Of a stretch of DNA of 64,000 bases, positions 15,637 to 56,181 are shown piece after piece. The notes below the pieces were generated by a model, which worked only from the letters and a program-made list of their open reading frames with translations, did no database searches and was not told the origin of the DNA. A program made the translations under genes and the position numbers. Source of the stretch: Candidatus Margulisiibacteriota bacterium (GTDB lineage: Bacteria > Margulisbacteria > WOR-1 > O2-12-FULL-45-9 > XYB2-FULL-48-7); NCBI GenBank assembly GCA_025453605.1, contig JALOPZ010000002.1, positions 132,631 to 196,630 on the forward strand. The letters are read 5' to 3'. The stretch's first letter is position 1. Every line of letters starts with the position of its first letter.

Positions 15637-15642
15637 ATGCGT

Positions 15643-18502: not shown

Positions 18503-18511
18503 GAGGTAAAC

Positions 18512-24023: not shown

Positions 24024-25237
24024 AAGAATATGCCCGGGTCATCCGGTCGCAGAATTTTGACGAGATCATGATGCTGGCGGATAAGCTGGCCGGCAAACGG
24101 GTCAAAATGGTCAATGCCACGGCGGTCGGCGGCGGTGTCGCCGAGATCCTAACCCGCGTCGTGCCGCTTTACAACCAGCTTGGCCTCAAGGTCAAGTGGG
24201 AAGTGATCAAAGGGACCGGCGCCTTTTTCGCGGTCACCAAGAATTTCCATAACGCCCTGCACGGCAGCAAGGTGGAGATCGGGGAAAAGGATTTTGCCGT
24301 TTTCAACGAAGCGACCGAAGCCAATTTGGCCGAAATGGATTTTACCGGTGACGATTACGTGATCGTCCATGATCCGCAACCGGCCGGCTTGATCGCGGCC
24401 AAAGAGAAGAGCCAGGCCAAATGGGCCTGGCGTTGCCATATTGACACCGCCCATCCGCAGGCCGACGTCTGGAATTTTCTCCGTCAGCTGATCGTCAAGT
24501 ACGATGCCTCGATCTTCTCGACCCCTTGGTTCGCTCGGGACCTGCCGCACCCGCAGTATTTCATCTATCCGGCGATCGATCCGCTGTCCGAAAAGAACCG
24601 TAATCTATCCCGCCATGAGATCGACACGGTCCTGAATAAATACCAGATCGACCGCAACCGGCCGCTGGTTGTCCAAGTTTCCCGTTTTGACCGGCTCAAG
24701 GACCCGCTCGGGGTGATCGAGACCTACCGCCTGGTCAAGAAGCAAGTTGATTGCCAGCTGGTGCTGGCAGGCGGCGCCGCGGCCGACGACCCGGAAGGGG
24801 TCCAGGTCCTGAACGAAGTGACGGAGGCGGCCAAAGGCGACCCTGACATCCATATTTTAGCGTTGCCGCCGTTCGCCGATCTGGAGGTTAACGCCCTGCA
24901 GCGAGCGGCGACCGTTGTTTTGCAGAAATCACTGCGCGAAGGCTTTGGTTTGACCGTCACGGAAGCGCTCTGGAAAGGTAAGCCGGTGGTCGCTTCCGCC
25001 GTTGGCGGCATCACGCTTCAGGTCATCCACAATTTTACCGGTTTGCTGGTCCACTCGGTCGAGGGGGCGGCATATCAGATCCGCTATCTGATCGGCAATC
25101 CGCAGGTAGCGAAGAAACTGGGTGAATACGGACGGGAGCATGTCCGGGAGAAGTTCCTGATAACCAGAAAATTACGGAATTATTTGCTGTTGTTCATTGC
25201 CCTGGACCATCCCGGGCAAGACATTATTAAACTGTGA
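24005..25237 (+). CDS. treT: Trehalose glycosyltransferring synthase TreT (GT4)
   Basis: VNATAVGGGVAEIL..VPL......W.VI.G...FFAVTKNFHNALHG and VHDPQPAGLIA match the archaeal/Thermotogae TreT N-terminal signature. Length is 410 aa. Confidence 0.7.
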   Translation: MAKPKIEEYARVIRSQNFDEIMMLADKLAGKRVKMVNATAVGGGVAEILTRVVPLYNQLGLKVKWEVIKGTGAFFAVTKNFHNALHGSKVEIGEKDFAVFNEATEANLAEMDFTGDDYVIVHDPQPAGLIAAKEKSQAKWAWRCHIDTAHPQADVWNFLRQLIVKYDASIFSTPWFARDLPHPQYFIYPAIDPLSEKNRNLSRHEIDTVLNKYQIDRNRPLVVQVSRFDRLKDPLGVIETYRLVKKQVDCQLVLAGGAAADDPEGVQVLNEVTEAAKGDPDIHILALPPFADLEVNALQRAATVVLQKSLREGFGLTVTEALWKGKPVVASAVGGITLQVIHNFTGLLVHSVEGAAYQIRYLIGNPQVAKKLGEYGREHVREKFLITRKLRNYLLLFIALDHPGQDIIKL

Positions 25238-26574: not shown

Positions 26575-27807
26575 ATGTCCTGGCAGAGAACACTGACGAT
26601 CGTCTGGTCGATCATTGCGCTGACGGTATCAGCCTCTGCGCTGACCTGGCCGGAGGCGCTAGAGTTGGCCAAGCGGAACAACCCCGAGCTGCAAAGCGCC
26701 CGCAAGCAGACCGAAGCGGCGCAATGGAGCCTCTACCGGAGCTATTCGTCGTTCCTGCCGCAACTGTCGGCCAGCGCTTCGACCGGCCAGTCAACTTCCG
26801 GCACGCCGGCCGCCACGGCCAACAGCTCGTCTTACGGTTTAAGCGTTTCCCAAACACTTTTCTCCGGGCTGGACAACTACTACAGCGCCTGGTCGGCCCG
26901 GACCGATCTTGATTATTACCGGGCGGCGCTGTTGAAAGCGGAAGCCGATGTCTATTATTCTCTCCGGCAGGCCTTTGTCGACCTGTCGGTCGCCGGCGAA
27001 AATCTTACTCTCTACAAACAGATCCTCGACCGCCGCCGGAACAACAGCGACCTGATCGGCCTCCGCTATGACAGCGGGCGCGAAGACAAAGGGGCGCTCC
27101 TTAGGACCCAGGCTGATCAGGCTGATGCGGCGGCCTCCGTTGCCGCGGCGGAACGGGCGCTCGCTTTGGCCAGGCTGAAGCTTTCCCAGCTTATTTCCAC
27201 TGAGGTTGATAAAGCGGAGGGCGAGTTGGCGGCCGGAACGGTTGCTGCGCCTGATTACGGAAAATTTTTGGCCGTTGCGCCGGCTCACATTATGAAGGTT
27301 AAACAGCTGGAGAAGGCGGACATTGCGCTCCGGCAAACGGTTGGCGGGTTCCTGCCGTCAGTTTCCCTGAGCGGTTCGTACCGGAAAAACGGCTCCGACT
27401 GGCCGCCGCAGAGCGACAGTAACAGCTGGTCGCTCAGTCTGTCGTATTCACTCTTCCCCGGCGGCGCTAACATCATTGATCGGGCGATCTACGCGGCGCA
27501 ATACGACCAGGCCAAGCAGGATTATCAGCAAGCCAGCAACGATCTCCGCTACGGACTGCAGTCGGCTTACCAGGCCTTTTTGGACGCGCTGGAGGCCGAA
27601 AAGACCGCCCGGCTCTCGCTCGACGCCGCGTCGCTGCGGGCGGAGATCGCCCGGACCAAATACATTAACGGCCTGACCACTTATGACGAGTGGGACCGGA
27701 TCGAGAACGATTACATCTCCGCCCAGCGCAACCTGCTTAGCCGGAAAAGATCCGCTTTATATGCTGAAGCCGCGTGGTTCAACTCATACGGAGGTTACGT
27801 TAAATGA
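26575..27807 (+). CDS. TolC-family outer-membrane efflux protein
   Basis: Signal peptide. Tandem OEP repeats carrying the LxxAxxNNPxL (ALELAKRNNPELQ) hallmark. Confidence 0.8.
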   Translation: MSWQRTLTIVWSIIALTVSASALTWPEALELAKRNNPELQSARKQTEAAQWSLYRSYSSFLPQLSASASTGQSTSGTPAATANSSSYGLSVSQTLFSGLDNYYSAWSARTDLDYYRAALLKAEADVYYSLRQAFVDLSVAGENLTLYKQILDRRRNNSDLIGLRYDSGREDKGALLRTQADQADAAASVAAAERALALARLKLSQLISTEVDKAEGELAAGTVAAPDYGKFLAVAPAHIMKVKQLEKADIALRQTVGGFLPSVSLSGSYRKNGSDWPPQSDSNSWSLSLSYSLFPGGANIIDRAIYAAQYDQAKQDYQQASNDLRYGLQSAYQAFLDALEAEKTARLSLDAASLRAEIARTKYINGLTTYDEWDRIENDYISAQRNLLSRKRSALYAEAAWFNSYGGYVK

Positions 27808-27905
27808 AAACAAGTAACGAGATACGGGTAACGGGTAACGGGAATGGCTGCGCTTGGCTGTCTCGCTCAATTCTTCTCATTACCCGTTACTCGTTACTCT
27901 ATTCA
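27804..27905 (+). repeat. ~100-bp repeat encoding the N-terminus of macA; an inverted copy lies at 31405-31513
   Basis: Reverse complement of 31405-31513 is ~85% identical over the first ~100 nt. Internal inverted repeat GGGTAACGGGTAACGGG / CCCGTTACTCGTTAC. Confidence 0.7.
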
Positions 27906-28820
27906 TTGCTGATCTTACTGTTAACCTCCTGTGCGCCGAAAAAGGAGATCCCGTTGGAGCTGGTCAGCGTGACCAGGGGGAACATTGAATCCAGCATCCC
28001 GGCGACCGGGACAGTGATGCCGCGCAACCGGCTGGAGATCAAGCCGCCGGTCTCGGGCCGGATCGAACAGGTGTTGGTAGCCGAAGGCGAGGCGGTTCGC
28101 AAAGGTCAGATCATCGCGCTGATGAGCTCGCTCGACCGGGCGACCCTGATCGACGCGGCGCGGGCCAAAGGGGAAGAAGAGGTCAGGCGCTGGGAAGAGA
28201 TGTACAAACCGACCCCGGTCATCGCCCCGATCAACGGTTTTATCATCCAGCGGAGCGTGGAACCAGGCCAAACCTTGACCAGCAACGACGTCGTCCTGGT
28301 GATGGCGGATAAACTGATCGTTAAAGCGCAGATCGACGAGACCGATATCGGCCGGATCAAGCTGGGGCAGGGGGTATCCATTGTCCTGGACGCTTACCCC
28401 AAGGACGAGGTCAACGGCCGCGTCGAACACATCGCCTACGAATCGAAGGTCGTCAGTAACGTGACGGTCTACGAAGTGGATGTCATCCCTCTCACCGTCC
28501 CCGACTTTTTCCGGGCGGGGATGAGCGCGACCGTCAACTTTTCGCAAAATGCGCGGCAGGATGTGCTGGTTGTCCCGCTTAAGGCGATCAAGAAGCGCGG
28601 TAAATCGGTTTATGTCTGGAAACCGAACGCCGATAATAAGACTGCCCAGGCGGTGCAGATCGAGACCGGCCTGGAAAACGGTGACAACCTTGAGGTCCTG
28701 TCCGGTTTGACCGAAGGCGAGAAAGTGGTCGTGCCGACCAAGGAGATGATCGAAAAACTGGCCAACCGCCGCGGAGGGCCGCCGAATTTTAATCCGTTCG
28801 GCAGCCAGCGCAGCCGCTGA
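27804..28820 (+). CDS. Efflux periplasmic adaptor subunit (HlyD/MacA family) lipoprotein
   Basis: Lipobox LLTSC, a biotinyl/lipoyl-like hairpin and a beta-barrel domain. ATGA overlap with tolC. Confidence 0.8.
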   Translation: MKTSNEIRVTGNGNGCAWLSRSILLITRYSLLYSLLILLLTSCAPKKEIPLELVSVTRGNIESSIPATGTVMPRNRLEIKPPVSGRIEQVLVAEGEAVRKGQIIALMSSLDRATLIDAARAKGEEEVRRWEEMYKPTPVIAPINGFIIQRSVEPGQTLTSNDVVLVMADKLIVKAQIDETDIGRIKLGQGVSIVLDAYPKDEVNGRVEHIAYESKVVSNVTVYEVDVIPLTVPDFFRAGMSATVNFSQNARQDVLVVPLKAIKKRGKSVYVWKPNADNKTAQAVQIETGLENGDNLEVLSGLTEGEKVVVPTKEMIEKLANRRGGPPNFNPFGSQRSR

Positions 28821-30778
28821 TGAGCCTGATCGAACTCAAAGGGCTCTGTAAAACCTATTACATCGGCGGCAAGATCCCCGTTTATGCCCTGCGCGATGTT
28901 TCGTTGACGATCGAGCCGGGCGAGTTTGTCGCGATCATGGGCCCGTCCGGTTCCGGCAAATCGACTCTGCTGGCGGTGCTCGGCCTGCTCGACCGGCCCG
29001 ATTGCGGCGAATACAAGATCCTGGGCAAAGAAGTCTCCCGCTTATCGGAACGGGAAACATCCCGCCTGCGTAACCATCTGCTCGGTTTTGTCTTTCAGGC
29101 TTTTAATCTCTTGCCCCGGCTCGATATCGTCACCAACACCATGCTCCCTTTTGTTTACGACGACGGCGTGACCGAGGCAAATCGCCAGGCGGCCAAAGAG
29201 CTGTTAACCAGGGTCGGGTTGGGCGATCGGCTCCGCCACCGGCCGAATGAGCTGTCGGGCGGGCAGCAGCAGCGGGTCGCTTTAGCCCGCGCGCTGGCCA
29301 ACAAGCCGCTGGTGATCATGGCCGACGAGCCGACCGGCAACCTCGATTCCAAGTCTGCCCAGGAGATCATCAACCTTTTCAAAGAGATCAATCAGCAGGG
29401 GAAGACGATCATCATGGTGACGCACGAGCCGAATCTGGCCAATGAAGCCAGCCGGCGGATCACCCTGTCGGACGGCCGGATCGTGGGCGACGAGCGGCTG
29501 CGCGCCACGGCGGCCGGGACGGTCAACATGCCGGCCCTCAAACCGCGCAATTTCAATCTCTTCTCGCTCAGCCGGCTCCTCGATTATTTTCGCGAAGCTT
29601 ATCTCTCTTTGCTGACCAATAAATTGCGATCGTTCCTCTCGATCCTGGGTGTCGTGATCGGGGTTGGGGCGGTCATCGCCATGCTGGCGATCGGCACCGG
29701 CGCCCAGCGGCAGGTCGAAAAGTCGCTTTCCGCTCTGGGAACGAATTTATTGTCCGTCCGGACCTCTTTCCGTCAGGGCGGGATCTCGCTCGGCTCAGAT
29801 TCCGTCACTCGCTTTAACCTCGAGGACCTGAAAGCGTTGCAGCAGCTTGACGGGGTCAAATATGTTGTCCCTTACGTTCAAGGCCGGGGCCAGGCCGTTT
29901 ACGCTAACCGGAACTGGAGCACCAGTATCAACGGGACCAGTGTCGATTATCAGTATGTACGGGACGCGATCCCGACCCAGGGTCGGTTTTTTACCCGGAG
30001 CGAAGAGCACCTGCGCGCTAAGGTTGCCGTGCTTGGCAAGCAGGTGGCGGACCAGCTTTTTCCAGATACCGATCCGCTTAATAAATGGATCAAGATCAAC
30101 CGGGTCAATTTTCAGGTGGTCGGTGTTCTGCCGGAAAAGGGTGGGAGCGGTTTTATGAATCCTGACGACCAGATCTTTGTCCCGCTGTCGACCGCCATGC
30201 ACCGGTTGCTCGGCCGCGACTACATCAATAATTTTGATGTCCAGGCGGAAAGCGCCGACTATCTGACCGGTTTGGCCGATGAGATCGGCCCGCTGCTGGT
30301 CAAATTACACCGGCTGCCGGCCGCTCAGGCCGACGGTTTTGATGTCCGCAACATGGCCGATATCCAGAAGGCGGCGGCCGAAACGGTCCAGACTTTCTCT
30401 TTTCTGCTTGGCGCGATCGCCGCCGTCAGCTTGCTGGTCGGCGGGATCGGGATCATGAATATCATGCTCGTGATGGTAATGGAGCGGACGCACGAGATCG
30501 GCCTGCGTAAAGCGCTCGGCGCCGAGGACCGCGATATCCTGACCCAGTTCCTGGTCGAGGCGGTGCTGATCTGCGTTCTGGGCGGATCGATCGGGGTCGG
30601 GATCGGCGGGATCATCTCTTTCTCGATCGGGGCGGTTGCCGGCTGGTCGGTCGTGATCACCCTCGAATCTGTTCTGCTGGCTTTTGTCTTTTCCGTTGTA
30701 GTCGGCGTGGTCTTCGGCCTCTGGCCGGCCAGAAGGGCGGCCCGGCTCCTGCCGATCGAAGCGTTAAGGTACGAGTAA
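28820..30778 (+). CDS. MacB-type fused ABC ATPase/permease
   Basis: N-terminal ABC domain ([24 protein letters not shown]), then a TM, a periplasmic domain and a C-terminal FtsX bundle. 652 aa. Confidence 0.85.
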
Positions 30779-45464: not shown

Positions 45465-45492
45465 TTGACAATCCCCCCCTTTAAGCTATAAT
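45465..45492 (+). promoter_or_regulatory. Sigma-70-type promoter (TTGACA-16-TATAAT) immediately upstream of flgF
   Basis: Perfect hexamers. The -10 ends 9 nt before the flgF ATG, implying a leaderless or near-leaderless transcript. Confidence 0.45.
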
Positions 45493-45501
45493 TTTTTCAG
45501 C

Positions 45502-46239
45502 ATGACCGACCGAATTTTGGAGATCGGAAGCGCCGGGCTGGAATCCACTGACCAGCAGGTCAAAAAACTGATGGACAACCTGGTCAATGCTGAGGTCCCC
45601 GGCTACAAAAGATCGGAAGTAGTCGTTAAAGGTTTTCCCGCCGCGCTTGAATCCGCTTCCCAGAAGTTCCAGCCGGTCAAACCGCAGGCCGACACGACTT
45701 TTTACAGCGAGCTCCCCGGCGCCCTGATCAAGACCGGCGGCGCGCTTGACGTCGCTATCGGCTCGGCCGGTTACTTTGTGGTCTCCGGCCAATGGGGCGA
45801 AGGCTATACCCGGGATGGCCGCTTCAAGCTCGACAACGACGGCCGGTTGCTGACGGTGGCCGGCAACTACCCGGTCCAGGGAGAAATGGGGCCGATCATT
45901 GTTACTCCGGGGACCGTGGTTGAGATCAACCAGGAAGGCGACGTGCTGGTCGACCAGGTCAAGGTCGATCGATTGAAACTGGTCCAGCCGGAACAACCGG
46001 GCGGACTGGAGCAACTGAGCGGCAGTCTCTTTAAACGCCAGGACGGGACGGTCGTGATGCAGCCGATCGATAACCCGCGCGTGATCCAGGGTTATGTTGA
46101 GTCATCGAACGTCAATCCGGTCGATGCGATGATGCAGATGATCGTGCTGGAACGGCAATACAGCCTCAACGGCAAAGTTGTTTCCACGCGGGACGGTAAT
46201 TTGGGGCGGGCGATGGAGCTGGGCCGTCCCACCCAGTAG
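45502..46239 (+). CDS. flgF: Flagellar basal-body rod protein FlgF
   Basis: N-terminal DNLVNAEVPGYKR rod motif. C-terminal YVESSNVNPVDAMMQMIVLERQYSLNGKVV. Confidence 0.7.
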   Translation: MTDRILEIGSAGLESTDQQVKKLMDNLVNAEVPGYKRSEVVVKGFPAALESASQKFQPVKPQADTTFYSELPGALIKTGGALDVAIGSAGYFVVSGQWGEGYTRDGRFKLDNDGRLLTVAGNYPVQGEMGPIIVTPGTVVEINQEGDVLVDQVKVDRLKLVQPEQPGGLEQLSGSLFKRQDGTVVMQPIDNPRVIQGYVESSNVNPVDAMMQMIVLERQYSLNGKVVSTRDGNLGRAMELGRPTQ

Positions 46240-46253
46240 AGGAGGGTAAAACA

Positions 46254-47054
46254 ATGTTTCAACCGCTATATGTCGCGGCGACCGGTCTTTCGGCGATGCA
46301 GGATGAGATCCTGAACATCACCAACAACCTGGCTAACGCCAAGACCGTGGCCTTTAAAAAATCACGCGCCGAAATGGAAAGCCTTTTCTACGTGGAAAAG
46401 AGCTTCAAGGATACGCTATACGAAGCAATGTCCGGGACCGAAGCGCCGCCGGTCAACGTGGAGTACGGGACCGGTGTCCGCGTGGCCGCTACGCCGAAGG
46501 ACTTTGCCCAGGGGACGATCGAGATCACCAGTAACCCAACCGACCTGGCGATCCAGGGCGAAGGTTTCTTCCAGGTTCGAATGCCGGACGGCAGTTACGC
46601 TTACACCCGGGCCGGTAATTTCCACGTTGACAATGATAACAATCTGGTCGATCCGAACGGCCGGCTGCTGGCCGCCGCGATCACCTTGCCCGACAACACG
46701 ACCTCGATCGTTGTCCGTCAGGACGGAACGGTCCTGGCGGCGACCGAGGGGAGCACCTCGCTGAGCGAGGTCGGCCAGCTGGCCATTTCCCGGTTCACCA
46801 ATCCGGCCGGACTTAAATCGATCGGGCAAAATCTCTACGCCGCGACCCCGGCTTCCGGCGAACCGGTGACCGGTACGCCGAACCAGGACGGTTACGGCTC
46901 GGTTAACCAGTATTCGCTCGAGTCGAGCAACGTCGACGTTATTTCCGAAATGATGCGGATGGTCATGGTCCAGCGGGTTTTTGACACGGTCAGTAAAGCG
47001 GTGCAGAGCTACCAGGGGATGCTGAACACGCTGCAGCAGATGAAGCAGGGGTAA
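46254..47054 (+). CDS. flgG: Flagellar distal rod protein FlgG
   Basis: NNLANAKTVAFKKSRAEMESLFY at the N-terminus. C-terminal LESSNVDVISEMMRMVMVQRVFD. Confidence 0.8.
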   Translation: MFQPLYVAATGLSAMQDEILNITNNLANAKTVAFKKSRAEMESLFYVEKSFKDTLYEAMSGTEAPPVNVEYGTGVRVAATPKDFAQGTIEITSNPTDLAIQGEGFFQVRMPDGSYAYTRAGNFHVDNDNNLVDPNGRLLAAAITLPDNTTSIVVRQDGTVLAATEGSTSLSEVGQLAISRFTNPAGLKSIGQNLYAATPASGEPVTGTPNQDGYGSVNQYSLESSNVDVISEMMRMVMVQRVFDTVSKAVQSYQGMLNTLQQMKQG

Positions 47055-47097
47055 GGGGTAGAATATCAGGGTATCAGGATATCAGAAAATCAGAGAA

Positions 47098-47811
47098 ATG
47101 AATAAACTGCTTATCAGTTTGATGGTCGGGTTGATGATCGCCAGCGGCGCAGCCGCGCTGAGCGATCCCGAGCAGCGGGTCGGCGCGGTCCTCAAGGATT
47201 TTATCGTTGCCAGGTATCCCGCTTGGGATCGGGCGGAGATCGTCCTGACCTATAAACAGGCGGACAAGGTTTGGGCGGCGCTCCGCGAACTTCCCGACCA
47301 GGCGGCGATCAGTGTGTTGCCGGTGATGCCGGATTTTAAACCAGCCGGCAACGTGATCTTCCCCTTGTTGGTCACCGGTGAGACCGGCGACAGCAAATTC
47401 CTCCTGCGCACCCGGGTCGAGGTCATGAAGAACGTGGTGGCGGTGGCTCAACCGATCAGGCGAGGGACCGCGCTGACGGCCGAACTGTTGAAACTGGAGA
47501 AGCGCGACGTGGCGCTTCTGCCGCCGAAGTATTTTACCGAGACGGCGGGACTGGGCAGTTGGGAAGCCAGGATCGGGATCCCGGCTAACAGCACGCTTTT
47601 TGTCTGGATGATCGGCGCCCCGCCGCTGCTCAGACGCGGCAGCCAGGTCGACCTCCTGGTCAGCGCGCCCGGTTTGTTGGTCAAGGCGAAAGGCGAGGCG
47701 TTGGAAGACGGCCAGCCTGATCAGCTGATCAAGGTTAAACGCCTGGACTCCGGTAAGATCCTGGCGGCCAAGGTTAAAAGTACCAATGAAGTAGAGGTAA
47801 CTGTCGAATGA
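47098..47811 (+). CDS. flgA: Flagellar P-ring assembly chaperone FlgA
   Basis: Signal peptide, SAF domain (VAVAQPIRRGTALTAELL), C-terminal KVKRLDSGKILAAKVKS. Confidence 0.65.
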   Translation: MNKLLISLMVGLMIASGAAALSDPEQRVGAVLKDFIVARYPAWDRAEIVLTYKQADKVWAALRELPDQAAISVLPVMPDFKPAGNVIFPLLVTGETGDSKFLLRTRVEVMKNVVAVAQPIRRGTALTAELLKLEKRDVALLPPKYFTETAGLGSWEARIGIPANSTLFVWMIGAPPLLRRGSQVDLLVSAPGLLVKAKGEALEDGQPDQLIKVKRLDSGKILAAKVKSTNEVEVTVE

Positions 47812-48398
47812 ATAAAAAACTGCTGGCGCTCGGATCACTTTTACTGGCGTTGACGGTGTCGGCCGGCGCGGACTCGCTCTGGGGCGATAACAGCGCTTCG
47901 CCGTACTCGACCCAAAAAGGGTACAAGGTTGGCGATATCATCAACATCATCGTTTTGGAAAGCACCTCGGCCAAGAGCCTAGCCGGCAGTAAGTCTGACG
48001 TTAAAGATGACCTGAACGCCAAGTTGACCCACACGCTGGCCCGACTGGCGCCGGTGATCGGGACCAATACCCAGATCGCCGGGTCGGCCCAGAACAAGTA
48101 CATCGGCGACGCGTCGACCAACCGGGGGAACAATGTTTCCGCCCGGATCGCCGCCTGGGTGACGGAAGTCCTCCCCAACGGCAATCTGAACATCAAAGGT
48201 TTACACCGGGTCGAGGTTAACGATGAGCTGCAGGAGATCTCGATCACCGGGCAGATCCGGCCGAAGGATGTCAGCGGAGGGAACACGATCTATTCCTATC
48301 AGGTAGCTAACGCCGAACTGGCGGTCAAAGGGACGGGCGCGGTAGCCGACAGCAGTTCACCCGGCTGGCTGACCAGGATATTTAATTGGATCTTTTAG
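47808..48398 (+). CDS. flgH: Flagellar L-ring protein FlgH (no lipobox Cys)
   Basis: SLWGDNSASPYSTQKGYKVGDIINIIVLES is the FlgH signature. The mature protein has no cysteine. Confidence 0.8.
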   Translation: MNKKLLALGSLLLALTVSAGADSLWGDNSASPYSTQKGYKVGDIINIIVLESTSAKSLAGSKSDVKDDLNAKLTHTLARLAPVIGTNTQIAGSAQNKYIGDASTNRGNNVSARIAAWVTEVLPNGNLNIKGLHRVEVNDELQEISITGQIRPKDVSGGNTIYSYQVANAELAVKGTGAVADSSSPGWLTRIFNWIF

Positions 48399-48407
48399 GA
48401 GGACCTA

Positions 48408-49508
48408 GTGAAATTTAACAGGCTGATCGTCCTGGCCGCGATCCTGACCGTGCTGGCGACCGCCGCTACGGCAGCGATGCCGGCTTCGCGCGTCAAAGAC
48501 CTCGCTTCGGTCCTGGGCGCCAGGGAAAATCAGCTCCTCGGTTTCGGCCTGGTCGTCGGACTCAACAATACCGGCGACAAGACCCAGACCGGCTTCACTC
48601 AGCAGGCGCTGACTAACCTATTGTCGCGCATGGGCGTGGTCCCGCAGGTCGTCGATTTTAAGTCGCGCAATGTCGCCGCGGTCATGGTCACCGCCACTCT
48701 GCCGCCGTTCACCCCGGCCGGCCAGAAACTGGACGTGACCGTCTCGTCGGTCGGCGACGCGACCTCGCTGCAGGGGGGGACCTTGCTGATGACCCCGCTG
48801 CAGGGCGCGGACGACCAGGTTTACGCGGTAGCGCAGGGGAGCCTGGTGGTCGGCGTCGATCCCGCCTCGCCGAGCGTTCCTTACGCCCGGCAGCGGCAGG
48901 TCACGGTCGGCCGGATACCATCCGGGGCGCTGGTTGAAAAAGAAGTCCCGGTCACGCTGGCCGGCAAGGCCGGATTGTCGATCGTCCTCAACGAACCCGA
49001 TTTCACGACCGCCAATCGCCTGGTTAGCGCGATCCGCACGGCCGGGTTTGACGCCACCGCCCGCGACGCCGGCACGATCACGGTGCCGCTCTCCGGCGAG
49101 GACATTGTCACGATGATCGCCCGGATCGAAAATCTCAAGATCACCCCGGACACGGTCGCCAAGATCGTGATCAACGAACGGACCGGCACCGTGGTGATCG
49201 GCGAGAACGTAGTGCTGGCGCCGGTCGCCGTCTCTTACGGCGGGATCGACGTCTACATCGGCGGGATCGATCTTTATTCGGAGGGGACCAACTCCGAGAA
49301 CATCGAGGGGGAAACCCGCTACACCGCCCAGGGCAAAGCCCGGATGAAGAAGAAAGAGACCAAGCTGACCCTGGTCCCGGCGGCGCCGACCCTGGCGACG
49401 TTGGTCCGGGCGCTGAACACGATCGGCCTGTCGAACAAAGACCTGATCGCGATCCTGCAGGCGATGAAAAAAGCGGGCGCCATCAAGGCAGAGCTGGAGG
49501 TCATATGA
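48408..49508 (+). CDS. flgI: Flagellar P-ring protein FlgI
   Basis: Signal peptide. RVKDLASVLGARENQLLGFGLVVGLNNTGD is the FlgI N-terminal signature. Confidence 0.85.
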   Translation: MKFNRLIVLAAILTVLATAATAAMPASRVKDLASVLGARENQLLGFGLVVGLNNTGDKTQTGFTQQALTNLLSRMGVVPQVVDFKSRNVAAVMVTATLPPFTPAGQKLDVTVSSVGDATSLQGGTLLMTPLQGADDQVYAVAQGSLVVGVDPASPSVPYARQRQVTVGRIPSGALVEKEVPVTLAGKAGLSIVLNEPDFTTANRLVSAIRTAGFDATARDAGTITVPLSGEDIVTMIARIENLKITPDTVAKIVINERTGTVVIGENVVLAPVAVSYGGIDVYIGGIDLYSEGTNSENIEGETRYTAQGKARMKKKETKLTLVPAAPTLATLVRALNTIGLSNKDLIAILQAMKKAGAIKAELEVI

Positions 49509-49801
49509 TCGAGGCGGTCCAAACCGGTTTACCGGTCAGCGGCGCTCCCGTCGGAGCGACCGCGACCAGGCGGCAGCAGGCGGAAGTGGAGTTTATGACG
49601 ATCTTTTACAAGGAGATGCTCAAGCAGGTCTTCAAGACGCCGCGGTTAAGCGGTGAAGACGAGGAAGAAAGCGGTTTCAGCTCCGCGCTGACCGCGATGA
49701 ACTCCGACCTGCTGGCGGAAAAAATGGCGGAACAGATGGTTAAAAGCGCCCTGGCTAACCGGCAGTGGTCCGGTCTCGGCGCACCGGCGGTCGGCCAATG
49801 A
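49505..49801 (+). CDS. flgJ: Flagellar rod-binding protein (FlgJ N-terminal domain only)
   Basis: QQAEVEFMTIFYKEMLKQVFKT matches the rod-binding AxxFEaxFlxxMLKsM motif. 98 aa, no muramidase domain. Confidence 0.55.
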   Translation: MIEAVQTGLPVSGAPVGATATRRQQAEVEFMTIFYKEMLKQVFKTPRLSGEDEEESGFSSALTAMNSDLLAEKMAEQMVKSALANRQWSGLGAPAVGQ

Positions 49802-50538
49802 GCAAACCATCGGTCGCCAAACAGAAAAAATCGAGCGGGCCGGCCAGGGTGCTGATCCAGGGATCGGTCGAGGCGTACATGCCGCTGGTCCATTCGATCG
49901 CTTCGATGGTTTCGGGCAAAGGTTTGCCGCCGAACATCGAGTACGACGATCTGGTCTCCGACGGGACGGTCGGCCTGATGAAAGCCTGGGAGAATTTTGA
50001 CCCCAAACGGGGGGTCAAATTCGAGACCTACGCCTCCTACCGGATCCGCGGCGAGATGCTGGACGGTCTGAAGAATTACAGCCCGGTCCCGTACCGGGTC
50101 CAGGTGATGGTCCGCGATCTGGCCAAAAAAGGGGTCAAGTCGGTCATCAGCAAAAAAGAAGCGGCGGAAGAAGAGCTGCTGGAAAAGCGCGAGCTCTCCG
50201 AAGACGAGTTCAAGCAGGCGCTGAAACGGATCAAGAAGATCGTTTCGGCGTCGGCACTGATGTACCTGCTCTCCATCCAGGGGATGTCGGAGGCTGGCGT
50301 CGAGCCGCAGGTCTCCAATGAGGGGACGCCCGATTCCGAAGCGGATTTTGCCGAGCTTAAGGAGCGGATCCGCGGCGCGGTTTACGACCTGCCGCAGCAG
50401 CAGCGCCAGATCATCGAGCTCTTTTTCCATAAAGGGATCAATCAGAAGACGATCGCCGAGAAGCTGAGGCTGTCGCGGCCCAAGGTCTGCCGGGTGATCA
50501 GCAAAGCGATCGAAGCGCTGAAAAAGAAGGTAAAGTAA
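49798..50538 (+). CDS. fliA: Flagellar sigma factor FliA/sigma-28 family
   Basis: Sigma-70 region 2 (LVSDGTVGLMKAWENFD...FETYASYRIRGEMLD) and region 4 HTH (TIAEKLRLSRPKVCRVISKA). ATGA overlap with flgJ. Confidence 0.7.
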   Translation: MSKPSVAKQKKSSGPARVLIQGSVEAYMPLVHSIASMVSGKGLPPNIEYDDLVSDGTVGLMKAWENFDPKRGVKFETYASYRIRGEMLDGLKNYSPVPYRVQVMVRDLAKKGVKSVISKKEAAEEELLEKRELSEDEFKQALKRIKKIVSASALMYLLSIQGMSEAGVEPQVSNEGTPDSEADFAELKERIRGAVYDLPQQQRQIIELFFHKGINQKTIAEKLRLSRPKVCRVISKAIEALKKKVK

Positions 50539-50539
50539 A

Positions 50540-50848
50540 ATGGTCTTTTCGCCGGTCGAGATCTTTGACAGTTCTTTCGGCGGCCTGGAAAGAGCGATGC
50601 AGGTCGCGACCCAGAGACAGATGGTCATCGCGCAAAATATCGCCAACGCCAAAACGCCGGGTTACCGGGCGATGACCTTTGATGAACAGTTGATGAAAGC
50701 GGTGGAACGGGCCGAACGGCGCGATGTCGTCCTGGAGGACGAACTGTCGGCCCTGACCGAGAACTCGGTAAAGTATTCCGCGGTCACCAAGCTGATGACC
50801 GCCAAGCTCAATGTCCTGAAGACGATCGTCACGCAGGGAAGGAGATGA
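50540..50848 (+). CDS. flgB: Flagellar proximal rod protein FlgB
   Basis: QRQMVIAQNIANAKTPGYRA motif, ~100 aa. Confidence 0.75.
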   Translation: MVFSPVEIFDSSFGGLERAMQVATQRQMVIAQNIANAKTPGYRAMTFDEQLMKAVERAERRDVVLEDELSALTENSVKYSAVTKLMTAKLNVLKTIVTQGRR

Positions 50849-50854
50849 TGAGCG

Positions 50855-51301
50855 ATGGGCTTTGATGACGCGCTGGAAATAAGCGTTTCCGGGGTTGAGG
50901 CGCAGCGCCGGACCATGGAGCTGATCTCGTCTAACCTGGCGAACATCAGTACGACCCGCACCGCTTTTGGCGGTCCCTACCGGCGCAAGATCGCTGTTTT
51001 GGGCGAAAAACAGATCTCCTTTGATCAGGCCCTCGGTGAGGCGCAGTTGCGGCTGACCGGGACCGCGGGCGGGAACGGGGGCGTGGCGGTGCTGGACGTG
51101 GTCGAAGACAGTTCCCCTTTGCCCAAGGTCTACAATCCCGGCCACCCCGACGCCGACGAGAACGGCTACGTCCAAATGCCCAACGTCAATATGTCCAACG
51201 AAATGATCGACATGATCATGACTTCCCGGCTGTACGAAGCGAACATTACCGCGTTCAACGCGACCAAAAAAATGATGCAGGACACGCTGGCGATCCAGTA
51301 A
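50855..51301 (+). CDS. flgC: Flagellar proximal rod protein FlgC
   Basis: SNLANISTTRT ... YVQMPNVNMSNEMIDMIMTSRLYEANI. Confidence 0.8.
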   Translation: MGFDDALEISVSGVEAQRRTMELISSNLANISTTRTAFGGPYRRKIAVLGEKQISFDQALGEAQLRLTGTAGGNGGVAVLDVVEDSSPLPKVYNPGHPDADENGYVQMPNVNMSNEMIDMIMTSRLYEANITAFNATKKMMQDTLAIQ

Positions 51302-51325
51302 GTGTCCGACTGGAGGGGGTAAAAC

Positions 51326-51691
51326 ATGGTGCAGGGGATCGATCCGGTTTCCGCTAACCAGCGCCTGGCCCAGATACTGGGCGATGAGCCGTTAATGGCC
51401 CAGGCCGAATCGCCCGTGCAGATGGGACAGGGTGCGGGCGGTGTGACCCGGGCCGGTTTTACCGGCAATGCCTTTGACGACCTGCTCGGCAAAGCGATCG
51501 AATCGCTCGACGGGGTCAGCAAAACCGAGTTCCACGCCAATCAGGTGATCGACCAGTACATCAAGGGTAAGGCCGATCTCCAGGAGGTAATGGTCGCCCA
51601 GTCCAAAGCGACCATTATGGCCCAGCTGGCAGTGACGACGGTCAACGCGGCGGTCAACACCTTTAAAGAAATAACGCAGATGCAGATCTGA
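51326..51691 (+). CDS. fliE: Flagellar hook-basal body protein FliE
   Basis: C-terminal LQEVMVAQSKATIMAQLAVTTVNAAVNTFKEITQMQI. Confidence 0.7.
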   Translation: MVQGIDPVSANQRLAQILGDEPLMAQAESPVQMGQGAGGVTRAGFTGNAFDDLLGKAIESLDGVSKTEFHANQVIDQYIKGKADLQEVMVAQSKATIMAQLAVTTVNAAVNTFKEITQMQI

Positions 51692-51755
51692 TGGATAGCG
51701 GTAAGCTGTAGGTCGTAAGCGGTAAGTTGTAAGTTAAGAAAAGAAAGGGGACAAG

Positions 51756-53249
51756 ATGGCGGAACCAGCGGGCGGTTTTGATCTGCGCCGATTGATCTTG
51801 GTCGGCGGCGTGATGCTTGTGGTCCTCTTTTCCGTGCTCTTTTTCGTTTTTCGCAGCTGCGCTCCGGCCCTGAGCGAGTCGGCGGCGCGCAAGCCGGGGT
51901 ATACCGTGATCTATTCCAATCTCGACCTCAAGGACGCCGCCAACGTCATTGCCCGGCTCAAGGAGAGCAATCTCCCGTACGAGATCAGGGATGACGGCCG
52001 GGCGATCGCCGTCCCCAAAGAAAAAGCCGACCAGGCGCGCCTGAGCCTGGCGGAAAAGAACCTGCCGGTCGGCGGCTCGGTCGGCTGGGAGATCTTCAAC
52101 GAATCCAAACTGGGCGCTACCGATTTTGACCGCCGGATCCAGCTGATCAGAGCGATCTCCGGCGAACTGGCCCGGATGATCAGGCGGATCAACGGGGTTG
52201 AAGAAGCGACCGTCCAGGTCGTGATCCCCGAGACCAAACTGTTCGCGGCGACGACCGCCCCGGTGACCGCCGCGGTCATGCTCCGCCTGCGCCCCGGTTT
52301 TATGTTGGCGCCGGAAAAGATCAACGGCATCGTTCACCTGGTCGCCAGCAGCGTGGAAAATCTGCAATTGGAGAATGTCACCGTGGTCGATGACACCGGG
52401 CGGATCCTGACCGGGAAAATGGCGGCGCTGACCACCCGGCTGGCTGCCAGTCCGCCGCCGCCGGCCGAGCGTCCGGTTGAGATCAAAGAACCGGAGCCGT
52501 TGCCTCCATCGCCGGATGTGGTGATGAGGAGGCCGGTCGCGATCGCGACGGTGGAAGTGAGCAAAACGGCCAAGCCGGTAACCGTGGAAGCGGTGCTGAC
52601 CCGGCCGGCCACCCTGACCGCCACGGAGAAACTGAAGATCAAGATCCAGACTAAAAAAGAGCTGGAGCAGGAACTGGCCGGCAAAGCCCAGGAGCTGCTC
52701 AATCGCTTTTACCCGCTCAACAGCGTGATCGTTCGGGTCACGGCTGACTTTAAACCGGCTAAAGAGAACGAACTGCGCAATAAAGAGCTCCAGATCAAAA
52801 AGATCACGACGGTGATCCTGGTCGACAACCGGGTCGATTTTAATGCCAATCTGAAGCAGGCGACCTTCACGACCGTCGCCGCCGCGGTCAACTACCACAA
52901 AAAGCGGGGCGACCGGATCATCCTGCAGCGGGTTCCGTTCCATCTGGCGACCCCGCCGCTTAGCCAGGCGAAGGGCGTAACCGGGCAGGCTGTCCGCCAA
53001 CCCGGGCGGGCCCTCCAGCTCTGGGGGACACTGCTGACCGCGCAAAGGTTGATCGGCGCCGGGATCGCCTTTGTCCTGCTCGTCCTGGTCTTCTGGTTCT
53101 TTACCGGCCGGTCCAGGCGGCCGGAGCCGCTCGGCGCGCCCCCCGTTCAGGAGCGAGAGAATGTGTCCAAACTTGATCAGGTCAGGAACGCGGTCGTCCA
53201 GGACCCGGAGAAGATCGCGGCCCTGCTAAAAAAATGGTTGAGCGAATAA
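51756..53249 (+). CDS. fliF: Flagellar MS-ring protein FliF
   Basis: N-terminal TM, RBM domains (LDLKDAANVIARLKE..), proline-rich linker, C-terminal TM. Confidence 0.8.
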   Translation: MAEPAGGFDLRRLILVGGVMLVVLFSVLFFVFRSCAPALSESAARKPGYTVIYSNLDLKDAANVIARLKESNLPYEIRDDGRAIAVPKEKADQARLSLAEKNLPVGGSVGWEIFNESKLGATDFDRRIQLIRAISGELARMIRRINGVEEATVQVVIPETKLFAATTAPVTAAVMLRLRPGFMLAPEKINGIVHLVASSVENLQLENVTVVDDTGRILTGKMAALTTRLAASPPPPAERPVEIKEPEPLPPSPDVVMRRPVAIATVEVSKTAKPVTVEAVLTRPATLTATEKLKIKIQTKKELEQELAGKAQELLNRFYPLNSVIVRVTADFKPAKENELRNKELQIKKITTVILVDNRVDFNANLKQATFTTVAAAVNYHKKRGDRIILQRVPFHLATPPLSQAKGVTGQAVRQPGRALQLWGTLLTAQRLIGAGIAFVLLVLVFWFFTGRSRRPEPLGAPPVQERENVSKLDQVRNAVVQDPEKIAALLKKWLSE

Positions 53250-53250
53250 T

Positions 53251-53712
53251 ATGGCATTGACCGGACGAGAAAAAGCGACGATATTTCTTTCCCTCCTCGG
53301 GGCGGACGTTTCCGCCCGGGTGCTCCGTTATCTGCCGGATGAGCTGGCGGACGTGATCGCCGCCGGGATCAATCACCTGCCGACCCCTTCGCCGGATGCG
53401 CTGGCCGAAATAATGGCCGAATACAACAGTTTTTTGGCTTTACCACCGCCGATCGAAAGGACCGAACAGATCGTTTATGAAACGGCGCCAGCCGTCGCCC
53501 GCAAGAATTACGCGCCGCTCCTTTACGAGCGGCCGCAACTGGCCGCCTTTATTGTCTCTTTGCTGCCGGCCGATGAACGGGAAGCCGCCTTGCGCGCTTT
53601 TCCCAAGAACCGGGCGGCGATCGAAGAATTGCTCACCGCATTAAAAGAGAACGATCTGCAGCCCAAGATAGCGGAACGCCTGCGGCAGCAGTATGCCGGG
53701 ATCATCTTTTAA
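53251..53712 (+). CDS. FliG N-terminal-domain-only protein (truncated FliG homolog)
   Basis: LTGREKATIFLSLLGADVSARVLRYLPDELADVIAAGINHL matches the FliF-binding N-domain of FliG. The product is only 153 aa, and fliH starts 4 nt later. Confidence 0.55.
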   Translation: MALTGREKATIFLSLLGADVSARVLRYLPDELADVIAAGINHLPTPSPDALAEIMAEYNSFLALPPPIERTEQIVYETAPAVARKNYAPLLYERPQLAAFIVSLLPADEREAALRAFPKNRAAIEELLTALKENDLQPKIAERLRQQYAGIIF

Positions 53713-53715
53713 ATC

Positions 53716-54378
53716 ATGGGCCTGATCAAACGAGATCAGCTGCAGGATACGGGCGAGGTCCTGATCGAAAAACCGAATGAAACCGTGACCCACCGCCCGG
53801 CGCCGCGATTGGTGATCGCCGCCGATGATCTTCCCCGGGCGCAGAACGAGGCGGAGCGGATCATCGAACAGGCGCAGCATGAAGCGGCCGCGCTGGGGCA
53901 GGAGGCCAAAGAAGCCGGCCGCCGGGAAGGTTTGGAGGAAGCGGCCGCGCGGGTCGATGAGGCGCTCTCCACTCTCAATCAAGCGGTCAAAGAACGCAAG
54001 CGGATCATCAAGGACGCCGAAGGGGAACTGCTCCGGCTCTCGCTCAAGATCGCCGAACAGATCATCCGCTCCGAGGTCTCGCTCCACCGCGACGTTTCGC
54101 TCAACATCGTTTCCGAAGCGATCAGCCGCGTCTCCGACCGGGAACAGATCATTGTTCGGGTGAACCGCGACGACGCCGAGTACCTCAAGCGCTACAAGGA
54201 CCGTTTGGCCGGAATGATGGACGGCGTTAAAAGTTTTTCGATCATCGAGGACGCCAACATCGAACCGGGCGGCTGCGTGATCGAGACCAACCTCGGTTTT
54301 ATCGACGCCAGGATCGCCACCAAGCTCCGCTCGATCGAAGAAGCCCTGCAAAAAGATTACAGCGAAGAAAACCGGTAA
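53716..54378 (+). CDS. fliH: Flagellar export/assembly protein FliH
   Basis: Coiled-coil N-terminus. C-terminal FliH/YscL domain (LRLSLKIAEQIIRSEV...IIVRVNRDDAEYL). Confidence 0.7.
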   Translation: MGLIKRDQLQDTGEVLIEKPNETVTHRPAPRLVIAADDLPRAQNEAERIIEQAQHEAAALGQEAKEAGRREGLEEAAARVDEALSTLNQAVKERKRIIKDAEGELLRLSLKIAEQIIRSEVSLHRDVSLNIVSEAISRVSDREQIIVRVNRDDAEYLKRYKDRLAGMMDGVKSFSIIEDANIEPGGCVIETNLGFIDARIATKLRSIEEALQKDYSEENR

Positions 54379-54379
54379 C

Positions 54380-55696
54380 ATGGACTACGCCATCGATTTT
54401 GAGAAATACCATAAAGCGGTCGACCGCGCGGAGCTGGTCCGGGTGATCGGCAAGGTCGTGCAGGTGGTCGGTTTGATCATCGAGGCGCAGGTCGGCGGAG
54501 TATCCGTCGGTGATCTCTGTTCGATCCGGCTGGAGAAAGAGGGGCGCGAGCAGTTCGCCGAGGTGGTCGGGTTCAAGGAAAGCCGGGTGCTGCTCATGCC
54601 GCTCGGTTCGACCGCCGGGATCGGTCCGGGCGCCCAGGTTACCGCCGTCGGCCATCCGCTCAAGGTCCGGGTCGGCCCCGACACGCTGGGCCGGGTGCTC
54701 GGCGGCCTGGGTGAACCGATCGACGGCAAGGGGCCGGTCCTGGGTGAGACCGACGCCCCGCTAGATGCCGATCCTCCCGATCCGGTTAAACGGCCGCGGG
54801 TGACCGATGTGATGCGCTGCGGCGTCCGGGCGATCGACGGGATGCTGACGGTCGGCAAGGGGCAGCGGATCGGGATCTTTGCCGGCTCCGGCGTCGGCAA
54901 GTCGACCCTGATGGGGATGATCGCCCGGAACGCGGAAGCGGACGTCAACGTCATCTGCCTGGTCGGTGAGCGCGGCCGCGAAGTGCGCGACTTTATCGAA
55001 GAATCGCTCGGCGAGGAGGGGCTAAAAAAGTCGGTGGTTGTGGTCGCCACCTCGGACCAGCCGCCGTTGATCCGGCTGAAGGCGGCGTTCGTCGCTACCG
55101 CCATCGCCGAATATTTTCGCAACAACCGGAAAAAAGTCATCCTGATGATGGATTCTGTCACCCGATTCGCCATGGCGCAGCGCGACATCGGCCTGGCCGC
55201 CGGCGAGCCGCCGACCACCAAGGGATATACCCCGTCGGTCTTTGCCCTGTTGCCGCGCCTGATGGAACGTTCGGGGACCTCCGAGAGCGCAAGTATCACC
55301 GCTTTTTACACGATCTTAGTTGAGGGGGATGATTTTAACGAGCCGATCGCCGATCACGCCCGCTCGATCCTTGACGGGCACATTGTCCTCTCCCGCGACC
55401 TGGCGGCGCGCAACCATTACCCGGCGATCGACGTCCCGCACAGCGTCAGCCGGATCATGACCAACCTGGTCTCGGACGAGCAAAAAGCGGCGGCCGGCAA
55501 GCTGCGTGAGGTTCTGGCGCGTTACGCGGAGGCGGAAGACCTGATCAATATCGGCGCTTACGTCAAGGGGAGCAACCCGAAGATCGATTACGCTCTCTCC
55601 AAGATCGATCAGGTCAATGAGTTCCTGAAACAGGGGACGTTCGAAAAGATCGAATTCGAAGAAACGGTCGAAAGATTGCTCAGTATCTTTAATTAA
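54380..55696 (+). CDS. fliI: Flagellum-specific ATPase FliI
   Basis: Walker A GSGVGKSTL, Walker B VILMMDSVTRFA, and the F1/T3SS ATPase fold. Confidence 0.9.
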   Translation: MDYAIDFEKYHKAVDRAELVRVIGKVVQVVGLIIEAQVGGVSVGDLCSIRLEKEGREQFAEVVGFKESRVLLMPLGSTAGIGPGAQVTAVGHPLKVRVGPDTLGRVLGGLGEPIDGKGPVLGETDAPLDADPPDPVKRPRVTDVMRCGVRAIDGMLTVGKGQRIGIFAGSGVGKSTLMGMIARNAEADVNVICLVGERGREVRDFIEESLGEEGLKKSVVVVATSDQPPLIRLKAAFVATAIAEYFRNNRKKVILMMDSVTRFAMAQRDIGLAAGEPPTTKGYTPSVFALLPRLMERSGTSESASITAFYTILVEGDDFNEPIADHARSILDGHIVLSRDLAARNHYPAIDVPHSVSRIMTNLVSDEQKAAAGKLREVLARYAEAEDLINIGAYVKGSNPKIDYALSKIDQVNEFLKQGTFEKIEFEETVERLLSIFN

Positions 55697-55701
55697 ATAC
55701 C

Positions 55702-56181
55702 ATGGCCAGAGCACCCAAGCCGGGCAAAAAATTCAAATACGATCTGACCGCGGTCCTCAAGGTCCGCGAGATCCGCGAGAAGAAGGAACAGGAAAAGTTC
55801 GCGGAGAAGAACCGCGAGTACCTGACGGAGAAGCAGCGGGAAGAGGCGATCGCCGCCGAAAAGCGGGGGAAGGAAGAGGAGCTGCGCGGGGTCTTTCGCC
55901 AGGGGCCGATCGCCAATTTCCACAAGGTTTTGCAGCGGCGGGCCCACCTGGACGTGCTCAAAGACGATCTGGCCGAGCAGGTCGATAAGGTGATCGAAGC
56001 GAGCAAGCGGCTGGAAGAGCAGCGAGCCAAACTGGTCGAAGCGGTCAAAGATAAGAAGATCATGGAAAAACACAAAGAAAAGAAGCTGGATGAATACAAT
56101 AAGCTGATGTCAGGGCTGGAAATGAAATTTATGGACGAGATCGCGACCCAGCGGTTTAAGCGCGGGAAAGAGCCTTCGTAA
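55702..56181 (+). CDS. fliJ: Flagellar export chaperone FliJ-like coiled-coil protein
   Basis: Position after fliI. Charged coiled coil with [14 protein letters not shown]... Confidence 0.5.

Follow-up and report, generated by a model that had tools for sequence, protein, structure and literature searches.

A short FliG without the torque domain in a conserved and probably non-rotating flagellar apparatus of Saganbacteria/WOR-1

FliG is the single protein that links the MS ring of the flagellum to the switch, the stators and the activation of the export gate. In a 64,000-nucleotide stretch of a Candidatus Margulisiibacteriota genome (contig JALOPZ010000002.1, positions 132,631 to 196,630; hereafter the window, whose own numbering is used throughout), we found that the gene between fliF and fliH encodes a FliG of only 153 amino acids. 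This short FliG (53251..53712, plus strand, as are all flagellar genes of the window) consists of the domains ARM_N and ARM_M joined by a linker, and it lacks the C-terminal domain. Within a class-level clade this short form has become fixed, and it is neither an artefact nor a relic. We propose, with a probability of roughly 0.6, that it functions as the FliG of a non-rotating flagellar apparatus, reduced in its parts and conserved in Saganbacteria/WOR-1, a lineage of uncultured groundwater bacteria, and that this apparatus most likely serves as a protein-export conduit.

Domain anatomy and conservation of the short FliG

The open reading frame (ORF) begins with an ATG at 53251, one nucleotide beyond the end of fliF (53249), and closes with a TAA at 53710-53712, which leaves a 3-nt spacer before the start of fliH (53716). 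Its N-terminal sequence, MALTGREKATIFLSLLGADVSARVLRYLPDELADVI, agrees with the one quoted in an earlier prediction for this locus, and the position, the 153-amino-acid size and the fliF and fliH neighbors given there were borne out by the ORF coordinates and by Pfam. The predicted resemblance to the N domain of FliG also held, as Pfam FliG_N (PF14842) matched residues 3-60 well above its cutoff (37.2 bits against 25, E 4.8e-9). The protein thus shows the FliG hallmark of lying between fliF and fliH in a flagellar operon. Models for whole FliG do not recognize it: against the equivalog cutoff of 226.7 bits of NCBIfam TIGR00207, the short FliG scored 29.7 and the E. coli FliG control 506.9, the KEGG FliG model misses it, and NCBI labels it "hypothetical protein".

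An alignment of 45 close homologs (A1) revealed conserved residues 1-65, then a variable Pro-rich segment, and then a second conserved block that opens with E93-R94-P95-Q96 (53527..53538), a motif invariant in all 45. When the A1 profile was searched against 1.84 billion representative proteins, query residues 3-149 aligned colinearly with residues 8-183 of a 336-amino-acid FliG, and the second block (query 78-150) matched residues 112-187 of full-length FliG. In a joint alignment with full-length FliGs (A2), ERPQ falls under EHPQ, and the short proteins end where ARM_M ends. Alignment to E. coli K-12 FliG with hhalign likewise placed YERPQ (92-96) on DEHPQ (124-128; EHPQ is E. coli 125-128), so that ERPQ is the counterpart of EHPQ in the EHPQR FliM-binding motif. 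The complete motif is not present, since H is replaced by R and the counterpart of R160 is Leu (A2). In distant short members, only the Glu of ERPQ is kept in at least 90% of sequences.

The AlphaFold2 model (mean pLDDT 78) contains four helices (residues 5-62), a disordered segment (64-81, pLDDT below 50) and five helices (88-147, pLDDT 85-91). By sequence, the short FliG matched FliG_N in PDB entry 5tdy with an E of 0.0014. Foldseek matched FliG_N in the same FliF_C:FliG_N complex over 62 columns (root-mean-square deviation 1.7 Å), full FliG in C-ring cryo-electron microscopy structures, and the isolated FliG_M chains 3soh_B, 4qrm and 4fq0 (FliG_M:FliM complexes; 63-68 columns, 1.5-2.1 Å), for which the output does not give the matched query domain. 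The Pfam FliG_M match fell on the N block and not on ARM_M, and a weak MgtE_N match covered residues 98-149. The MgtE N-terminal domain (PF03448) has the same ARM-like helical repeat; the short FliG, however, lacks the CBS and transmembrane parts of MgtE, and its best matches and its context are flagellar.

These results define the protein as helices a1-a4 of FliG_N (ARM_N, residues 1-63, 53251..53439), a linker (residues 64-87, 53440..53511) and the FliG middle domain (ARM_M, residues 88-153, 53512..53709). The linker, Pro-rich and variable in length, is gapped and variable in both alignments and stands in place of a5-a6 of FliG_N and most of Helix_NM, the part of the N domain that corresponds to E. 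coli FliG ~65-105. ARM_M, delimited by the profile alignment and the five-helix model, ends before Helix_MC. The original prediction had described a FliG reduced to its N-terminal FliF-binding domain, without a middle domain, and had raised the option of a FliG-MC protein encoded elsewhere. Those parts have to be revised: the N domain is itself incomplete and the middle domain is present within the short FliG, which leaves a lone FliG_C as the one part that a separate gene could encode. The predicted absence of the C-terminal torque domain stands, as PF01706 found no match in the protein.

Compared with canonical FliG (FliG_N + FliG_M + FliG_C; TIGR00207; E. coli b1939, A. aeolicus 3HJL), the short protein shares the fliF-fliH locus position, the LTGxxKA... 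N terminus, an ARM_M with E-x-P-Q and a FliF partner with a canonical C-terminal tail, but it has 153 instead of ~330 amino acids. In the helix numbering of the Salmonella C-ring structures (PMC11528121), the removed elements are FliG_N a5-a6, Helix_MC, FliG_CN (ARM_C) and FliG_CC with the torque helix. In the Salmonella C ring, a5-a6 pack on the neighboring FliG in the inner subring, FliG_CN stacks on the FliG_M of the neighbor, and FliG_CC carries the torque helix and builds the upper subring (PMC11528121).

The short form is widespread within one group of organisms. A search of 5.8 billion proteins returned 208 matches, and the 120 listed were all 145-164 amino acids long, with 53-99% identity and with Candidatus Margulisbacteria, Saganbacteria or WOR-1 wherever a source was named. 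In the profile search, ~60 clusters (50% identity) of short proteins ranked before the first full-length FliG, which appeared at E ~5e-10; homologs overall span ~145-190 amino acids. Scanning one genome per GTDB species, we found short fliG in 32 genomes labeled Margulisiibacteriota, Saganbacteria, WOR-1 or, where unclassified, "bacterium" or "uncultured bacterium". The same ORF is also present on a second assembly record (527,632 bp). Complete or near-complete genomes with the short FliG include MEUD01000001.1 (1.67 Mb, labeled "curated complete") and JGI Ga0675942_0000004 (1.58 Mb). Across 34 distinct sequences from 32 species (149-186 amino acids, all intact, down to 38% identity), mean pairwise identity fell from 0.69 (N block) to 0.38 (M block) and 0.26 (linker). 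The corresponding ratios of nonsynonymous to synonymous differences (pN/pS) were 0.27, 0.53 and 0.71, values that are relative measures only because synonymous sites are saturated.

No separate remainder of FliG was detected nearby. A FliG_C hidden Markov model (HMM) built from six full-length FliGs had no match in the window or in 38 related loci (±10 kb) when these were translated in all six frames (best E 0.097), and an N+M HMM from the same six proteins recovered 39 of 39 short FliGs. This null result, together with fliH adjoining the stop codon, rules out a frameshift or hidden remainder and confirms the earlier statement that there is no room for one. Neither a frameshift nor a sign that the ORF is a decayed duplicate of a full-length fliG, the two findings that the original prediction had named as speaking against it, came to light. 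In one related locus (L018, ~6010-6108), an apparent 643-amino-acid FliF-FliG fusion proved to be an ORF that extends across an assembly gap filled with Ns, and it is a trap for automated annotation of that metagenome-assembled genome (MAG).

Short FliGs with ~40-44% identity also occur in marine Margulisiibacteriota, namely in the single-cell genome AM-326-D04 (L030) and in two MAGs (L025 and L037); in L030, the genes downstream of fliJ (Fic and others) are unrelated. In a published gene table, the marine Margulisbacteria AA1A and AG3B have a FliG flagged "check_length" and no FliM (PMC6349859). The reduced system may thus extend beyond Saganbacteria proper.

The basal-body operon and the gene content of relatives

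Short fliG is part of a 15-gene operon (45502-56181) that is free of internal stops and in which no gap exceeds 64 nt. The gene order (flgF, flgG, flgA, flgH, flgI, orf98, fliA, flgB, flgC, fliE, fliF, short fliG, fliH, fliI, fliJ) is essentially invariant across related loci. A putative sigma-70-type promoter (45465..45492, plus strand; TTGACA-16-TATAAT, 12 of 12 consensus positions) precedes the flgF start by 10 nt. By this consensus match, expression of the entire basal-body operon, with the fliA-like sigma factor that it encodes, would depend on a housekeeping-type promoter and not on a flagellar hierarchy.

The gene immediately upstream of short fliG encodes the MS-ring protein FliF (497 amino acids, 51756..53249; Pfam YscJ_FliF, E 1.8e-59). 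Its C-terminal tail DPEKIAALLKKWLSE (53202..53246), the presumed FliG_N-binding helix, matches the E. coli FliF tail DPRVVALVIRQWINNDHE and is kept in all related loci; a phmmer search of the tail against PDB gave no FliF match, the peptide being too short and divergent. Downstream lie fliH (53716..54378; Pfam FliH, E 1.4e-21), the type III export ATPase gene fliI (54380..55696; ATP-synt_ab, E 1.1e-90, and T3SS_ATPase_C) and, as the last gene, fliJ (55702..56181; FliJ, E 5.2e-9). The FliH of the window and that of at least one relative begin with MGLIKR.

Rod proteins are encoded by a flgF-like gene (proximal rod, 245 amino acids, 45502..46239; Pfam LlgE_F_G_D1 and Flg_bbr_C; best NCBIfam model flgF TIGR02490, 153.9 bits against a cutoff of 178.5), flgG (distal rod, 266 amino acids, 46254..47054; Pfam, and TIGR02488 with 289.6 bits against 252.75), flgB (50540..50848; Flg_bb_rod) and flgC (50855..51301; Flg_bb_rod and Flg_bbr_C), with fliE at 51326..51691 (FliE, E 2.5e-13). 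The outer rings are represented by the P-ring assembly chaperone gene flgA (47098..47811; ChapFlgA, E 2.1e-25), flgH for the L ring (47808..48398; FlgH, E 1e-44) and flgI for the P ring (48408..49508; FlgI, E 6.4e-114). At the position of flgJ lies orf98 (49505..49801), a conserved small protein without a Pfam match. It is weakly similar to the FlgJ N-terminal, rod-binding part (NCBIfam NF009349, E 4.6e-4, below cutoff), lacks a peptidoglycan-hydrolase domain, and has a recognizable ortholog between flgI and fliA in most related loci. The fliA-like sigma factor gene (49765..50538; FliA/WhiG subfamily; Pfam Sigma70_r2/r4; NCBIfam TIGR02479, 146 bits, below the cutoff of 189.6) has a predicted GTG start that orf98 overlaps by 37 nt, and because of this overlap the true start may lie further downstream.

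In most relatives, two extra genes head the operon: a weakly FliK-like gene (~427 amino acids; Pfam Flg_hook, E 6e-4, below cutoff) and a stand-alone FlhB C-terminal domain (~110-137 amino acids; Bac_export_2, E 5e-20; NCBIfam flhB_rel, 92 bits against a cutoff of 117). The pair is found at L004:596-2263 and in L014, L016, L017, L020, L022, L026, L028, L029, L032, L033, L035, L038 and L042; tblastn found neither gene in the window. It would be a ruler/substrate-switch pair in a system without filament genes. Examining the gene neighborhoods of FlhB_C-like homologs only recovered the same operon.

Housekeeping genes flank the operon, with RmuC and a tRNA-binding protein upstream and convergent rpmB followed by recG downstream. 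No other flagellar gene was found elsewhere in the 64-kb window or within 10 kb beyond either edge. Searches with E. coli FliM, FliN, FliO, FliP, FliQ and FliR (phmmer) found none of these in the window and 42 loci, and the FliE, FliF, FliH and FliI controls were positive. MotAB was absent from the window and flanks by annotation, FlgK, FlgL, FliD and FliC were likewise absent from both, and no candidate secreted effector was found in the operon or its flanks.

The wider gene content of the lineage comes from the KEGG ortholog table in Supplementary Data 2 and 4 of Matheus Carnevali et al. 2019 (PMC6349859), which covers 46 genomes, 26 of them Saganbacteria; the Methods of that paper confirm the genome codes used in the table. 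Nearly all Saganbacteria have FlhA, FlhB, FliO, FliP, FliQ, FliR, FliH, FliJ, FliF and FliE as well as FlgB, FlgC, FlgG, FlgH, FlgI, FlgA, FliA, FliN/FliY and the FlhB_C-like K04061 (PMC6349859). K04061 is also listed for HO1-type genomes (PMC6349859), whose operon (L019) has no upstream FliK-like/FlhB_C pair. FliG, FliM, FliK, FlgK, FlgL, FliD, FlgM and FlgN are scored "#N/A" in all or all but one Saganbacteria, the lone exception being a "check_length" FlgL call in RX6A (PMC6349859). CheC and CheD are absent, and methyl-accepting chemotaxis proteins, CheW and CheB occur in a few subgroups only (PMC6349859). With these models, Riflemargulisbacteria and several Melainabacteria genomes of the table do score positive for FliG, FliM, FlgK/L and FliD (PMC6349859). 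An "FlgE" call is present in most Saganbacteria and not in the HO1/HO2 genomes (PMC6349859). The 245-amino-acid rod-like gene of the operon is unlikely to account for this call, as HO1-type genomes carry the gene (L019) without an FlgE call and its best NCBIfam match is FlgF.

Several other features of the window lie outside the flagellar operon. A membrane-bound group-4 [NiFe]-hydrogenase/complex-I-like module spans window positions 8-2177 and, in the extended locus, L040:2325-11779. It comprises NiFeSe_Hases/Complex1_49kDa, NADHdh, a 4Fe-4S protein and a HycI protease, with Mrp-type antiporter-like subunits upstream in the extended locus, and it agrees with the hydrogen-based metabolism described for these lineages. 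A 941-amino-acid ORF (4113-6938) and a divergent 238-amino-acid ORF (3394-4110) have no Pfam match, and both are annotated genes in the JGI copy of the contig (L040). A trehalose cluster (21149-25237) encodes an OtsA-like GT20 enzyme, a trehalose-phosphatase, DUF5752 and a TreT-like trehalose synthase, followed by an extracytoplasmic function (ECF) sigma factor and an LTXXQ/metal-resistance protein. Two MacB/FtsX-type ABC systems lie at 14314-19932 and 26575-30778, of which one combines two FtsX permeases with an ATPase and a LolA-like protein and the second is a tripartite efflux system of a TolC-like OEP, HlyD and a fused MacB; both are outer-membrane-related functions of a diderm envelope.

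Comparison with known systems

The closest functional analogue appears to be the non-motile hook-basal body of Buchnera aphidicola, a proposed transporter that, like the system described here, keeps the MS ring, rod, rings and type III export. Late filament genes are missing from Buchnera (PMC8109811) and several go undetected in Saganbacteria, a pattern that points to a shift from motility to another use. Buchnera, however, retains a full-size FliG (38 kDa), FliM and FliN (PMC8109811), whereas here FliG is trimmed and FliM is undetected. Furthermore, Buchnera is an obligate endosymbiont under genome erosion, while the organisms with the short FliG were sampled from groundwater, sediment and the sea, and their reduced state is fixed across a deep clade.

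Injectisomes (non-flagellar type III secretion systems) share the type III export core and ATPase complex without motility-specific parts, and a loss of genes specific to the flagellum with retention of translocation, which has been proposed as the first step toward injectisomes (PMC3459982), is conceptually similar to what is seen here. The difference is that the flagellar rod (FliE, FlgB/C/F/G), the L and P rings (FlgH, FlgI), FlgA and FliG are kept, and no secretin (SctC), SctD or needle (SctF) gene was found in the window or flanks. The system belongs to the flagellar lineage and is not a member of the non-flagellar type III secretion systems.

A truncated FliG of another kind was found at L043:10001-10816. 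This complete 271-amino-acid protein (P0271) is encoded between fliF and fliH, with a sigma-54 activator gene upstream, and by Pfam has FliG_N and FliG_M and no FliG_C. It aligns to E. coli FliG 3-229 and thus retains the full N domain, M with EHPQ, Helix_MC and the start of ARM_C, and lacks FliG_CC. The truncation is sporadic: apart from one close copy (P0186, 89% identity) and P0416 (244 amino acids), which also has no FliG_C match, the relatives are full-length. P0190 is also listed among the relatives of P0271. By these sequence comparisons, the truncation looks recent or isolated and not like a clade-wide form, and against it the Saganbacteria short FliG stands out as a fixed, clade-wide state. 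Our literature search found no paper describing a FliG without its C domain or the partial flagellar set of Saganbacteria.

A proposed non-rotating apparatus

The original prediction had offered a non-rotating, basal-body-like structure as one alternative, and this fits the clade-wide fixed short form, the invariant operon and the published KEGG gene content. We propose that one sigma-70-driven operon would supply the MS ring, rod, P and L rings and export ATPase complex, with the export gate (flhAB, fliOPQR) and fliN presumably encoded elsewhere in the genomes of the lineage. The conserved FliF tail and the strongly constrained ARM_N suggest, by homology to 5TDY, that the canonical 1:1 docking of FliG_N on FliF_C is kept. 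ARM_M, on its flexible Pro-rich leash, would then offer its E-R-P-Q face to a cytoplasmic partner, for which FliN, FliH-FliI or a divergent FliM_M-like protein missed by KEGG are candidates. Such a contact might hold the sorting/ATPase platform under the MS ring, keep the rotor in an export-licensing conformation, or both. In Bacillus subtilis, the FliG substitution Q132R, located in the central ARM, allows hook export in the absence of FliM (PMC4526659), which may, by analogy, point to a torque-independent role for ARM_M.

Loss of a5-a6 and ARM_C removes the ring-polymerizing FliG contacts, and each short FliG would thus act as an individually tethered adaptor and not as part of a rigid rotor ring. 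There is also no rotor-stator interface at FliG, as FliG_C is absent from the protein, the window and the 38 related loci; lacking ARM_C and the charged torque helix, the apparatus would give MotA-type stators no surface to push on. No route for MotA torque without FliG_C is known (PMC11528121). The result would be a rod/ring structure that spans the envelope without rotating, in some lineages bears a hook, and has its export driven by FliHIJ and the gate.

Several observations weigh against a non-rotating export conduit. The published table has no rows for MotA/MotB; its FliC (flagellin) row is empty for all 46 genomes, flagellated ones included, and hence uninformative, as is the equally empty FliS row; and it covers relatives and not the genome of the window itself. 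Because KEGG missed the short FliG, its FliG absence in 26 genomes is weak evidence, and other "absent" calls such as FliM could conceal proteins that are similarly reduced or have diverged. That ERPQ is invariant would be compatible with the survival of a FliM_M-like partner. The apparatus may include a hook, given the KEGG "FlgE" call in most Saganbacteria and the FliK-like/FlhB_C pair in many loci. Finally, we know of no export substrate for the apparatus.

Some of these same points could be read as signs of a rotary motility organelle with a split or re-wired rotor, in which FliG_C, the stators, a FliM-like switch and the filament genes lie elsewhere and are too divergent or too short for KEGG. 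False negatives are real, MotAB and FliC are outside what the table can show, FliN, fliA and the "FlgE" call do occur, no variation is seen in ERPQ as the counterpart of the FliM-binding motif, and the sister Riflemargulisbacteria have complete sets and are described as motile. We nonetheless regard rotation as distinctly unlikely. No FliG_C is present in any frame within ±10 kb in 38 loci, and FliM, FlgK, FlgL, FliD, FlgM and FlgN go undetected in 26 Saganbacteria by models that are positive in several Melainabacteria genomes and in Riflemargulisbacteria. Most chemotaxis genes are missing, the short FliG has also lost a5-a6 and Helix_MC, the connections between N, M and C in a functioning rotor, and we know of no functional split FliG that would serve as a precedent. 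Unlikely too, although still credible, is a non-rotating but purely structural device, i.e., an anchor from inner to outer membrane, a spacer or an envelope-stabilizing rivet, with type III export used for its own assembly only. Rod and L/P-ring genes with their chaperone do dominate the operon, no candidate effector is encoded there or in the flanks, and the sigma-70 promoter looks constitutive. The full FliH/I/J ATPase complex, the FliK-like/FlhB_C pair in most genomes and fliA, however, suggest regulated and ordered export, and the closest analogue, that of Buchnera, is generally discussed as a transporter (PMC8109811).

Loss of the motor-defining domain and absence of many late flagellar genes would also be expected of a decaying relic, in which the short fliG is a pseudogene fragment left with an ORF by chance. 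This is highly improbable: the 34 short FliGs from 32 species are intact with a strongly constrained N block, the 15-gene order is invariant with gaps of at most 64 nt, no internal stops and a consensus promoter, and the sporadic 271-amino-acid truncation, with two near-identical copies among full-length relatives, presents a different picture. An error of sequencing or assembly in a normal ~330-amino-acid fliG, by frameshift or premature stop, deserves almost no weight, as we found no point in its support and four against it: fliH adjoins the stop, the homologs all fall in one length class, the ORF recurs on a second assembly record, and FliG_C is missing in every frame.

The non-rotating export conduit thus remains our preferred account, and it bears on how these organisms are annotated. 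As KEGG K02410 and NCBIfam TIGR00207 miss the short FliG, genome surveys score these organisms as having no rotor, and motility predictions for the phylum call for care. More broadly, with the torque module and ring-polymerizing contacts gone and the FliF-binding and ARM_M modules kept under long selection, the short FliG separates the assembly and export roles of FliG from its motor role, and it offers a minimal FliF-FliG unit for structural work. A larger evolutionary picture, which we hold tentatively and at somewhat less than even odds, is that a deep and apparently non-endosymbiotic lineage (Saganbacteria/WOR-1 and possibly marine Margulisbacteria) remodeled the basal body as a trans-envelope type III machine that is permanent and does not rotate. 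Its rod and L/P rings would form the conduit and FliG a two-ARM tether of the MS ring to a FliM-less export platform, in an exaptation independent of, and structurally unlike, the origin of injectisomes. If the apparatus is indeed a dedicated secretion or envelope device, it would offer a present-day instance of the "flagellum minus motility" intermediate that has been postulated in the origin of injectisomes, known from environmental MAGs and not from a decaying endosymbiont.

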